The notes below the pieces were generated by a model that did not search any database, was not told the origin of the DNA, and saw only the letters and a list, made by a program, of their open reading frames with translations. From Schmidtea polychroa (lineage: Eukaryota): DNA of 64,000 nt. This document shows positions 13,901 through 34,900 of the stretch, piece by piece. Made by a program: the position numbers and the translations under genes. The stretch lies in assembly GCA_044892525.1 (NCBI GenBank), contig CM097885.1:7070001-7134000 (forward strand), read 5' to 3'. Within the stretch, counting starts at the first letter, position 1; each line of letters begins with the position of its first letter.

Positions 13901-16900
13901 TGGTACTCTTTGATTTGTTTTCGTTTTAAAATTTCATTTTTTTTCATTTTATCATATCTAGTTTAGTATATATTCTCAGAGTTGTCTATTAATTTTATTC
14001 AATCTTTCAATCAGTTTATGAAACAAAATTTTTTATTCCTTATGATAACATATATGAACGTGCAGATTTAAATGCTGTGAAAAGCACAATAATTGTATGA
14101 AAACACCCCAGAAATGCTTTGAGTGTCGAATTGGTAATTTATATTAGCAGTACAAATTTTATCCTTTTCGGCATTGATATAAGTTTTCCAAAAACATAAA
14201 ATGTCGAAATTTCTAAAAATGTTGAAAACCCATAAAGTGAACGATGGAAAGTCTTGACGTATTATTTTATTTTCGGATTTTTAATGAAAGGATAAATATT
14301 TGGTCACATCAATATATTGAAGCCTTCCACGCATGGTAAATATATGCTTCGATCGGGTTTTTCAATCTTTACAAATTCTTTTGCCATCTTTCTAAAGCAT
14401 TTCCCTCATTTATGAGAAATGTCTTTTATAAAATTTATGCACTAAAAAGTGTAGATAAATTAGTTGAATTACTGGTGAAGAATGGTTACTCAAAATGGTT
14501 TTTATTGTTAACGTTGAAAGAGACTGTTGATAAATGTATGAATAATGCTAAGGATCGTATTATGAATGAATGTAAATTGACTGATATCTCGAATGATGTA
14601 GTGAATATTAGTATTGATACTAACAAACAAGATCAGCCAAAATATACGATGATATTGCCATGTTTTGAAGAATATAAAGATTTCAAAAGAATGATAGGTA
14701 AACAACTGGATAAATTGAATTATAGTATGTTTGTTTTAAATCTCAAACGCTGGTTGGATTGTGTTCGGATCTCGTTTATCAATTCATATGTCACAAATGC
14801 CACATTCATTTGTCTTTCATCTATGTACTCGAGTGCAAAAATATTGTCGACCGAACGGAGTGTCCAATATTAAGGATCATAATAAAGTCTATATGAGAGA
14901 ATTATAAATGTCGAATGTTAAAATCTTATCAAAAAATTTTGATAATGGTTTTGAGCGTGTGGTATGTGAAGCATTATTGATAAGAACTTTTAATCCTAAA
15001 ATCAATGTGCAGAATGCAGTGAATACGTGTGTGTTGACTGTTTTTAAATAAGTTTTTTTATGTTGATGTATTTTGAATAGTAGTTATGTTAAAAAATAAT
15101 TAAAATAATATTTTTTTAAAGAATTTTTAAAAGCGAAAAATAATGTTTGTTTTAAAATAATTATTTAAAAAATTTATTAATTTTAAAGCAATCATTGAAA
15201 ATTATTTTTGAAAATAATTATTTAAAATTCTTATTTATAATTTAAAAAATTTATTGATTTAATAATTTGTTTTTAAATTATCAATATAGTATAGTTATTT
15301 ATTCCTCGTCAATATAGGTAACCTGATGATGATAGTGATGCTATCGAAATATATAGTGAAAAAGATTTACGAATGGCGATTTTTATTAATAAAGTCTTTG
15401 CCGTGTTTGATTAAGTATACATTATTTTAAATGAAAAAATACATTAATCAATTTGAGTAAAACATGAGACACAAAAAAGGCCATTATTTAATATTATTTT
15501 GAAATTGAAAAATCACAGAATATTATTTATAAAATTGTCATTGTCCTAGTAAAGCTGTTTTAACTTTCGAAGGTGTTAGTTTCTTGCGCTTGGTTCCAAT
15601 ATCGACATTTTTTGCCTCTGGTTGTGGTTTGCAATACTTTAATCTGGTCGCCATACCAACCACATGTACAAATGTAGTGCTTTACAAATGCAGGGCAGGT
15701 ACAAGTATCTGTCTTCCATATTTTGTTTTGTAGGGACACACACCAAATGCGGAATTGTGTAGCTCTGAAAGTATTAAATCGACCATTTTCGTAGCGTTTT
15801 ATATCTTTATCTGAGATTTTAACAGTTTCGCCTGATGGTACATAATATTTTATAGTCTCTATATCAGTATCTGGTATTGAAATCACTTCATTGTTTGATT
15901 TTTCCCTATTGTATTAATCAGTCCAATGTGAAAGTTGTTTCTTCCTTGTAACATTTTGAATTTATATCTCTTGGATCGTGCTCTTTTGACCACTTTTTAA
16001 CAATTTCAAATCTTGAGAGCACTAAACTTTTGACGGAGAGTATCTTCATTTTTGATAACACGGTTCGTCGCTTCGAGGGTTGTTGGTGCTTGGTGTAAAC
16101 CTTTGCACGCCTTCATACCAATCGTTCTCTGATGACAACCATTCATTTCTTTAAAAACAACTGCGTTGCACGTTAAGTTTTTTTGTATCTTTTGAAATCT
16201 GCAATATCTCAAAATGCTCATTTAATTTAATTAATGCTAAATTTCTTTAATTCTCATTAAAAAAAAATTAATGCTCTTTTAAATATAAGTATTTATTAAA
16301 AACACCGATATATTTACTGATTCATTGTCAAGTTTTTTAATAAATACAATGTCAATTATTAGTTGTTATTTGGTTGGAGATGCAATTTTACAATTTTCAC
16401 TTTGACTGACAGATGAAAATTATTGCAAGAGATCATTATGAAATACTTCACCGTAAATCGAATATCATTAAAAGTGGCTGATTTGATGCGCAGAGTCAGT
16501 CGAAATAAAAATATAAACCACCTAGCAAATTTTAATTAAATTTTTAATTATTTTGTCTAATCAAGGAATTTGAAATATGCGAAAATCTAACATTTGATTT
16601 TAATATGTATTTCCATTGATCATGGGACTGGTTAGATTCCATGCAGTTTGTTTTATATATTTATATATAATTTCACTTGAAAATATTTATTACCATGTAA
16701 CATTTGATCGCTCTGCACTATTAGCATTGTGATTATTATTTATTTATCATTTCGTTTCCATTAAATCTAATCATCAAGTAATTAACCAATAATATTTTTG
16801 GGTTTAAATAAATTTGGTTCCAATATTTCAAATTAATTAATTAATTATTTATCAGTTGAAAAAATTTAAATTAAAATAAATTTTATTCGATGAAATTTTG

Positions 16901-31900: not shown

Positions 31901-34900
31901 AGACTTGTTGAAAAATTGTCAAGACTTACACATCCTACTCACTTGTGGCGACAGGTGGATAGGAATTATGTGATGAATTAATGTCAATATCTTCTAAGCT
32001 GTCAAAGAAAAAAACGTCCTTGCAAGTTCTTATATTTTTAAAATCAAACCATTGCTTGGAACCTTTTCCAAACACAGCTATTGCAATCCGCATTTTGTTA
32101 ACTATTCCAGTCAGTGTGGTAACTGGTGAAAGAAGCTTTTCAAAGTAGAAATTAATAAAAACATACCTCCGAGCATCTATGACATAGGAAAGACTTACTC
32201 CTCTAGCTATCTTATCTATTGAGAAAGACGTAGTCCAAACATTAGATTACGGAAATATTATAAGCAATTTTGCAAGTCCTAAAGCAAGCAAGGTATTTTT
32301 AATGTAAAAACATACTTTTAGAGACTAGAATAGATAAAACATTTCAAAGTTACATAAAAATTTGTAATAAAATTTGCAAAAGAAAAAATTCGTCTTACGT
32401 CAGTAAATATTTTTAATAGCTCTTTTTTTCTTTTCTCGGTAATGTAAGTGTTTTACGATTTTCCAACAAATTTATATTAGCAAGTTCTGACGGTACTTAT
32501 TAAAAATTATAATAATAAATAACTCAGTTTGGGTATAACATGGTTAATGTTCTGGGCCCCTATGCAGTAGTTCGTCATTCAATTGTAAGGTGTAAGGCGT
32601 GAGGTAGTATGCGTCAGTCTGGTCAGAGGACGCCAAAATGTATGGATTTCCTAGGGCGCCATTGTGGCTAGGGCTGGCTTTGATATCAATTTTTCTATAT
32701 CGAATAATGTTTGATTGTTTCTTTACAAAAGTATAACTGTCAGGCAGCAATAATGATTGCTAAATACTTCTTATAAATTTAATTCAGCATTTACATTACT
32801 TTAAATATTATTTTTAACAGGTTTAGTTTGGTGTTTTATTTCGGTGAATTTAATGTGAAATTTAAAGAATTGAAATTATCAATCGAGCTGTAATTATTAT
32901 AGTCACTATAATGCATCAATGGTCAATGTGAGGATGGACAATTCATTTGAATGTGCACTATATAATCTAATACAATAGTGGTTAGGAGAATCGTACTATT
33001 TTAAGAGACGTGTTATGTGAATATTTATTTTAAAATGGATTCAAACGTTTTGACTAGCGGCTAAGTCGAAGACATTCACACAGTGGCGATAATTACTTTA
33101 TTATAATATATTATACGATATTGCAACTCTAACTTTACCAGAAATAAAAATCACATTATTTTTATATATCTAAAGGATGTAGAATTTTTTTTTGATTTGT
33201 AGCCTCATAGGTGCAAATTATGAAAGGCCGGTAAACAGATAAATATAACTGGGGGCATAAAATGAATCCAGTGGCAAAGTAAAGGTTAATGTTGTTTGTT
33301 AGAGGCTATAACATTCAATTCTTCTGTCATCAAATAAATTACTAAGACTAATAAATCCAAACTTATATTTCATTAAATCTGCTTATATAAACAAATATTC
33401 TTGGGACATTTTCTTTTTATAAATTTTAATTTCAACCAAATATCAACATACCACATTCATGCTTGAATTGCAATTTTATTAAAAATTATTTAAAATAAAA
33501 ATAAACCATTTTAATTCTAATATATTTCAAATAATTTAAGTTTCACTTTTAATTTTACAGAATTTAATGAAATAATTTTAATTTAACATTTTAATTTTAA
33601 CTCCTCACATTGTTTTTTCGGCCGATCAATCTTTTAAATATTTCTTTATATTATATTGTAGAAAATTAAATTCTTTTCACATATTATTACAATAAAACTC
33701 GATTAAATTATTCTATTTGAAAAGTGTAATATCTACAATAAAGAACTTACATTTTTGAATTTCTGTTTAAATGTAGTACTGATCAGCTAGATCTTATGTT
33801 TTAAGATCTTTCCAAATTCTCTACCTAATAATAAAGACTTCTATAGAAGACATGCATACATAAACTGACATTATATCAATAGTGATTTTTGTTTATAATA
33901 ATAATAATTATTATTATAAGAAAGCGCTAATCAAACATTCGTTTCACGATAAATATTTCAATAATTATTGGGAACGTGTAATTTGTAAAGCGTTATTGAT
34001 AGTCATTGAATCCGAAAATTAATGTTCAGAATGCAGTGAATACTTGTGTTTTAAAGGTTTTTAAATATTTTTTTTGTATATTGTATCTATCGATTGTTGT
34101 TGTTAAATTAAATAATTATTAAATTAAATTTCAATATTTTAAAATTTTATATTTGATTGTTAAAATTTGAAAAAATAATATATTATTTGAATTTTAATTT
34201 TTATAATTTTTTACAGAATGAAATATTTTTATTAAAAATTTTAATATAAAAATCTATAATTTCTATAGTTATTATATCCTACTTGATGATGACAAGAAAA
34301 CCGTCGAAATATATCGTGAAACGAATGTTTGATTGGTGCTTTCATTGTCATGTATGTTTAACTATTTATTCAATAATAATAATAATAATAATAATAATAA
34401 TAATAATAATAATAATAATAATAATAATAATAATAATAATAATAATAATAATAATAATAATAATAATAAAAATAATAATAATAATAATAATAATAATAAT
34501 AATAATAATAATAATTAAAAACTTTTCAAATAATTTCGCACATTTAATTTAAAAATGGAAATAGATTTTATTTATCTAATTTTTAGCTGATTTCGATGTT
34601 TGACATAAAGGAAATTCAACCGGAATTCCAAAAAGTCAATAAAATGGATCATGTCATTGTTATTTTGTTGAAAACTGACAGTAAAATATTCATAACCTCC
34701 AACGTAAGTAAAGAATTTTTGTGAAATTAACAATTTAAATTGCTTGAAATTTTAATAATATTTTCTAATTATTTACTGTATGATATTGAATATGATCACG
34801 ATAATATCATCATTTATATACGGATCAGTTCGAATGTAATTTATGAATTGAATGTCTTTTATTTTTAATTAAAAATACACTGTGATATAAACGGCACAAC

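Follow-up and report, generated by a model that had tools for sequence, protein, structure and literature searches.

The 64,000-nucleotide stretch of Schmidtea polychroa contig CM097885.1 analyzed here (positions 7,070,001 to 7,134,000, forward strand; hereafter the window) contains four minimal hammerhead ribozyme motifs, whose cores start at 15323(+), 17679(-), 22700(+), and 34283(+) in a descriptor search. These are very probably minimal type-I hammerheads in the pseudo-long terminal repeats (pLTRs) of 5'-truncated Penelope-like elements (PLEs) of the Penelope/Poseidon type. They belong to three related families of the kind already published for metazoan PLEs and would cut RNA weakly, only as dimers or with the aid of a protein. 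The window samples family F1 twice and families F2 and F3 once each:

15321..15357 (+): family F2 minimal hammerhead with a stem I of 2 bp, stem II GATAG/CTATC, and loop III TATA; the additional U is at 15330, and cleavage is predicted after 15355.
17643..17683 (-): family F3 minimal hammerhead with the core CCGAAGA, a stem I of 4 bp, stem II GACAG/CTGTC, and loop III TATA; the additional U is at 17672, and cleavage is predicted after 17647.
22697..22735 (+): subfamily F1b minimal hammerhead with a stem I of 3 bp and loop III TTAA; the additional U is at 22707, and cleavage is predicted after 22732.
34280..34318 (+): F1-type hammerhead, decayed, in which C3 is T and 3/5 stem II pairs remain; loop III is TATA, and the additional U is at 34290.

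All four share the layout YYGANGA-T-[15-nt stem II hairpin]-GAAA-4-nt palindrome-TH, with the extra T after A9 in 4/4 and a stem III loop that reads TATA in three copies and TTAA in one. The preliminary description of this DNA had reported this layout, the extra U between A9 and stem II, and the palindromic loop swap, all of which hold. A strict descriptor (one extra base, 4-nt palindrome) matched the window four times, versus a mean of 0.005 and a maximum of 1 in 200 block-wise dinucleotide shuffles, and a chance origin is excluded. A looser descriptor, allowing zero or one base after A9, returned the same four motifs and two weaker candidates, at 3824(+) and 30053(-), both of which fail the strict form. 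The 30053(-) candidate, which has no insertion, was dropped: its loop is non-palindromic, it lacks G10.1-C11.1, and it overlaps another open reading frame (ORF). An Rfam scan of the window gave no hammerhead family match and missed all four motifs. Two of the four copies are imperfect. Copy 34283 is decayed, because it keeps only three of five stem II pairs and carries T at C3; copy 17679 has C at U4, and the presence of only two stem I pairs in copy 15323 is a trait of family F2. The T at C3 and the C at U4 deviate from the class core, each in a single copy or a subfamily.

An intact F1b element from elsewhere in the genome, used as query in tblastn and blastn, placed the four copies in 5'-truncated insertions, of which one (22700) consists of pLTR only. 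The parent insertions and the predicted host gene around them are as follows:

14355..15048 (+): broken PLE ORF remnant, from the reverse transcriptase (RT) thumb to the GIY-YIG end, of the same F2 insertion as 15321..15357 (tblastn and blastn against intact F1b); pLTR similarity continues to ~15431.
17899..18069 (-): upstream of the F3 hammerhead, what is left of a degenerate GIY-YIG; identity 46%, E 1e-10 for a search of the window.
22537..22801 (+): fragment consisting of pLTR and tail, surrounding the F1b hammerhead; blastn 89% to the intact element; bordered by a (TAA)n run on one side and an AT-rich repeat on the other.
33951..34065 (+): remnant of the C-terminal GIY-YIG, belonging to the fourth (34280) insertion; pLTR similarity to ~34380.
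33903..33954 (-): inverted 5'-truncated pLTR/tail piece adjoining the 5' end of the fourth insertion (sequence similarity).
3819..22440 (+): predicted host gene, GRK2/3-like kinase exons; pieces at ~3819, 3933, 4248, 8158-8481, 20237, 21850, and 22044.

Three copies had been described as lying directly downstream of GIY-YIG coding remnants. The endonuclease remnants are indeed upstream of three, but they sit ~220-275 nt away across a pLTR spacer (tblastn) rather than adjacent. The 22700 hammerhead codes the first codons of the PLE ORF, with 29/30 residues identical to the intact element. Copies 15323 and 17679 fall between predicted kinase exons, and 22700 lies just past the PH-domain exon. 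The four window copies are lone dead fragments, and a function for the host is unlikely.

Intact parent elements are present in the genome. A tight pattern gave 3,685 matches in the 781-Mb genome and none in a reversed control, and a looser one gave 3,352 matches and two in the control; RT-GIY-YIG coding sequence lies upstream of many of the genomic copies. Long open frames were located by protein search, and 20 such loci were fetched. Four of the 20 (L155-L158, F1b) are organized as pLTR-ORF-pLTR, their paired hammerheads lying in direct orientation 2.7-2.8 kb from each other; in three of these an 873-codon frame is unbroken. The intact parent carries two hammerhead copies 2,771 bp apart, with the hammerhead site ~200 nt after the RT-GIY-YIG stop. 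These parents bear out the earlier attribution of the motifs to PLE hammerheads with a palindromic helix III. The single ORF encodes RT followed by a C-terminal GIY-YIG endonuclease (EN) with CCHH, and a CxxC lies between the two motifs. The linker zinc finger between RT and EN (CX2-5CxxC, as defined in PMC8557442) is absent from the 857-aa ORF. Partial tandems, inverted 5'-truncated copies, and an optional 30-40 nt tail, all Penelope/Poseidon traits, are present as well. Judged from ORF layout, linker, and copy arrangement, the elements are assigned to the Penelope/Poseidon-type EN+ PLEs.

F1 and F2 are ~70% identical in RT. The 3' ends of 61 F1 copies cluster at 32-44 nt (32 copies) and at 64-75 nt (21 copies) past the predicted cut, resembling the 30-40 nt tail of PLEs (PMC11167929). 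Among the 100 F1 copies listed, eight divergent pairs occur within 4 kb, and an inverted copy arrangement is a known PLE feature (PMC8557442). F2, F3, and a sister family, F4, were seen only as 3' copies after ORF remnants (16/23, 12/27, and 26/56, respectively), and among the 27 F3 and 56 F4 copies fetched none runs on into the ORF. F3 copies (e.g., window 17679(-) and L217) have one and the same damaged endonuclease in common, carry U4C in 16 of 27 cases, and form direct pairs only 660-860 bp apart; F3 may be a non-autonomous family. Non-LTR retrozymes, short tandem repeats that code for nothing and bear a canonical type-I hammerhead, were ruled out as a source, since the motifs lie in coding PLEs and carry the extra base.

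The closest described system is the minimal hammerhead ribozyme (min-HHR) of the pLTRs of metazoan PLEs (Cervera and De la Pena 2014, PMC4209133). It has the same core, CUGANGA plus one extra base, together with G10.1-C11.1, a short helix I, and a palindromic helix III; as here, it resides in pLTRs and occurs as thousands of mostly single truncated copies and in opposite-strand pairs. The Schmidtea mediterranea example in that study has an extra U and a UAUA loop, and one locus in this genome (L058) matches it at ~46/51 letters by eye, a likeness that suggests a planarian lineage for the host, whereas the families described here (stem II GACAG, GATAG, GACTG) differ from the one listed for S. 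mediterranea. The Drosophila virilis Penelope-type variant (PMC4209133) likewise has a 4-nt palindromic loop III (UAUA), a helix I of down to 2 bp, and a bulged base before helix II; unlike the motifs here, its extra base is C and it has a bulge inside helix II, of which we saw none. PAc, the Poseidon element of Anolis carolinensis (Frangieh et al. 2024, PMC11167929), shares the Penelope/Poseidon clade, an ORF that begins inside the hammerhead, and two 3' ends bounding the tail; it has been assayed in vitro.

Against this background, the extra U does not define a lineage-specific variant, as the preliminary description had proposed. A nucleotide between A9 and 10.1 is a conserved trait of metazoan PLE hammerheads (consensus CUGANGAH; PMC4209133). 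By our own count of Figure S3 in that paper, 54 of 56 motifs have it (A 30, U 12, C 11, G 1). The U type is found there in cnidarians, rotifers, flatworms including S. mediterranea, nematodes, a fly, and a mollusc, with one of the 12 U motifs being planarian. What spoke for a local variant was the U in 4/4 window copies, 60/61 F1 copies, and 22/23 F2 copies fetched, tallies that are biased by the search pattern. F4 first emerged with a pattern that accepted A, C, or T at this position; of its 54 matches to a pattern restricted to A or G, 51 have A and 3 have G. A two-copy family in the genome has C. A no-insertion pattern gave 43 genome matches and three in the control, many of the former being G variants of the same families. 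Among 80 metagenome contigs coding distant PLE relatives, 32 carry a sense-strand hammerhead (antisense control, 5/80); the extra base is present in 36/36 of their motifs and is U in 21/36, some of these being pLTR pairs or related contigs. Lineage specificity is therefore refuted: the extra base is an ancestral bulge of the class, and its U was inherited by descent in the three window families.

Some of the distant PLE relatives (L255, L257-L259, L262, L264, L267, L275, and L293) combine the extra U with a U3-A8 core (TTGAAAA). A U3-A8 core variant has been published for Schistosoma. A viroid hammerhead attributed to De la Pena and Flores (2001) reportedly also has a single base between A9 and G10.1, as here, but is said to sit in a viroid context and to have a full helix III.

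The four copies behind the stem I and stem II covariation noted earlier in the window represent three families, so each change amounts to one event between them, and two of the copies are imperfect. We compared 18 family or variant representatives, hand-picked by distinct flanks or stems and retrieved with patterns requiring much of the structure. Across these, 88.9% of cells are paired, and two-sided changes occur in 9 of 12 pairs. None of 500 shuffles reached this level of pairing and slid controls gave 22-48%, although the shuffle outcome is support rather than a probability, because the 18 rows are related and pattern-selected. The core positions G5, A6, G8, A9, and G12-A15.1 are unchanged in all 18 (partly by selection), and G10.1-C11.1 is G-C in 18/18, as the patterns required. 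With the two middle loop bases left free, F1 gave 2,019 matches. The 100 listed comprise 50 TATA, 48 TTAA, and 2 TAAA, and genome-wide only 35 of the 2,019 have intermediate loops (TAAA 19, TTTA 16). The F1 loops thus form two amplified palindromic subfamilies derived from one switch. Taken with the pairing of the related, pattern-selected representatives, the two dominant palindromes support structural selection across families, as had been suggested. RNAalifold on five family alignments found no shared distal stem, and hence neither an extension of helix I nor a loop-loop contact; Trp-Arg codons account for the TGG-CG conserved downstream.

In a pLTR-ORF-pLTR transcript, helix III would arise by pairing between the 6-nt palindromes of the two copies (AUAUAU or AUUAAU), and the RNA would be cut after UH. 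Such palindrome pairing in tandem transcripts is described in PMC4209133 and in the review PMC6765202 (Lunse et al., via the review). Folding disfavours helix III in a monomer: closing it costs ~5 kcal/mol in all four copies, and helices I and III are weak, a palindromic and unstable helix III being a trait of PLE min-HHRs.

Several observations weigh against efficient cleavage and temper our reading of the motifs as ribozymes. The modelled dimers of the two best copies reach -15.6 and -16.4, versus -18.2 and -24.2 for competing folds, and the other two copies fare much worse; the dimer is never the predicted minimum in any copy, and a 6-bp A-U helix III alone is worth <1 kcal/mol. The position of the cut after UH is itself a prediction, no direct tandem pair lies within 4 kb among the 100 F1 copies listed, and the frequent U4C in F3 may reflect relaxed catalysis. 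Published motifs of this type have low cleavage activity (PMC4209133), and the anole element cuts only with the aid of protein and can insert in vitro without cutting (PMC11167929). For this anole Poseidon, the template is reported to be mainly uncut RNA, and reads ending at the cut site were not seen (PMC11167929). The integrated copies here continue for 32-75 nt beyond the cut; their RNA template was thus probably not cleaved at its 3' hammerhead, which agrees with the anole result.

The position of the hammerhead at the ORF start, which the preliminary description had overlooked, offers another account of the extra U. In intact elements, the frame passes through the 5' hammerhead, which codes the first 11 codons of the ORF, with the cut falling after codon 11. 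Specifically, the core reads Leu-Met-Met, and the second Met is A9-U-G10.1, an in-frame AUG; the U may be held in F1-F3 because it completes this codon. It is conceivable, though rather unlikely, that the U is fixed as part of the RT-endonuclease initiator codon and that cutting would strip the start codon, acting as an off-switch for translation. The intact F1b frame is open from the core AUG through 856 codons, and a homologous peptide in the hammerhead frame is kept in F1, F2, F3, and F4. F4, which has an extra A or G and no core AUG, has an in-frame AUG at most eight codons after the cut in 47/56 copies, whereas F3, which has the core AUG, lacks one in that interval in 27/27; the extra-base tallies of F3 and F4 are, however, partly fixed by the search patterns. 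The homolog P0008 (36% identical, peptide only) starts MM-x5-KYIV in matching register and lacks a further Met close by. On the other hand, an in-frame AUG likewise follows soon behind the cut in 54/61 F1 and 17/23 F2 copies, and homologs P0009 and P0013 have called starts that align with this later AUG (peptides only). F1 and F2 have a second core AUG at positions 6-8. Of the distant relatives with a 5' hammerhead and an extra U, 0/3 are open from the core AUG (two have stops before the conserved Met and one is out of frame, although these copies may be decayed), and five others in the same comparison have A, G, or C as the extra base. Judged from its peptide alone, P0013 seems to read across a U-type hammerhead in a different frame. 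The damaged endonuclease common to F3 copies and the lack of fetched F3 or F4 copies continuing into the ORF further weaken the case, and 42 of the 54 published extra bases are not U (PMC4209133). The core AUG is best regarded as a candidate initiator rather than a general rule.

A broader version of this idea, which we find doubtful, holds that the true start codon has the core U as its second letter and that the ribozyme is a translation switch. Uncut RNA would yield protein and the insertion template, and cut RNA would lose the AUG; F4, by its U-to-A change, would have moved the start to just past the cut, and the TATA and TTAA subfamilies would be mutually incompatible dimer codes. In PAc, the cut site is 26 nt after the start codon, and here it is 26 nt after A9 (PMC11167929). 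The ORF-start overlap has no mention in the sections of PMC4209133 examined. A literature search that covered open-access papers, but neither subscription papers nor supplement file 1 of PMC4209133 nor the GenBank file of PAc, gave none calling the extra U an initiator letter. A candidate 3' splice site was seen by eye upstream of the core. In the pLTR, assembled contigs from four runs revealed neither a splice joint nor piled-up ends, which contigs are in any case unable to display.

It is improbable that the motif has lost all or nearly all catalysis and persists as a structure that the element protein binds or that guides folding for it, or only through its overlap with coding sequence. The weak helices I and III, the uncut integrated copies, and the common U4C in F3 would fit such a structure, as would the PAc catalytic mutants that insert normally in vitro and the lack of reads ending at the cut site (PMC11167929). 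Yet the core is invariant in 18/18 representatives (partly by selection), and the amino acids encoded under stem II vary freely while pairing is kept. In PAc, moreover, rescue by a C3/G8 swap indicates real ribozyme chemistry (PMC11167929). That the extra U is a special catalytic core feature of this organism's hammerheads is scarcely credible given its place in the published class consensus.

The motifs in the window are thus real, structured new members of a class known since 2014, to which they add families, and the earlier claim of novelty fails. The start-codon overlap is a modest side point with published precedent. Published accounts leave the cellular role of PLE hammerheads unsettled (PMC8557442, PMC11167929). 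Young intact elements occur in this genome together with natural variants, namely an extra U with the core AUG, an extra A without it, and two palindromes, and such a set would ease testing of the translation-switch and dimer-specificity ideas.

Other hammerhead-like repeats were encountered in the genome. One dispersed family (L035:1501, L053, L062, L091, L093:3764, L110:1626) has a canonical hammerhead with no extra base, a stem I of 5-6 bp, and mostly a CTAG loop; several of its copies have, ~35 nt upstream, a stretch that we take to resemble the 5' end of U1 small nuclear RNA. A second repeat family (L031, L032, L038, L039) reads CTGA(G/C)GAG...CGAAATAAATC without a good stem II and is a hammerhead candidate.

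The surroundings of the four copies contain further features. Window positions 12840-24231, which include the first three copies, recur ~276 kb upstream (G000:C1:6.807-6.828 Mb) at 99.7-100% identity, and the fourth motif recurs at the same offset; the repeated stretch reflects either an uncollapsed haplotype or a segmental duplication of recent date. Another PLE family, distant from the first (~31% to F1b), lies at 57170-58800(+) and 542-1343(-), with no convincing hammerhead within 1.5 kb after its ORF. Rearranged 18S ribosomal RNA fragments at 38269-38983(+) are likely a pseudogene. By eye, we also assigned an unbroken 775-codon transposase-like frame at 24000-26327(-), a frameshifted hAT/BED-type transposase at 46792-48644(+), and TRAF-like RING/zinc-finger and MATH exons at 53160-54733(+).

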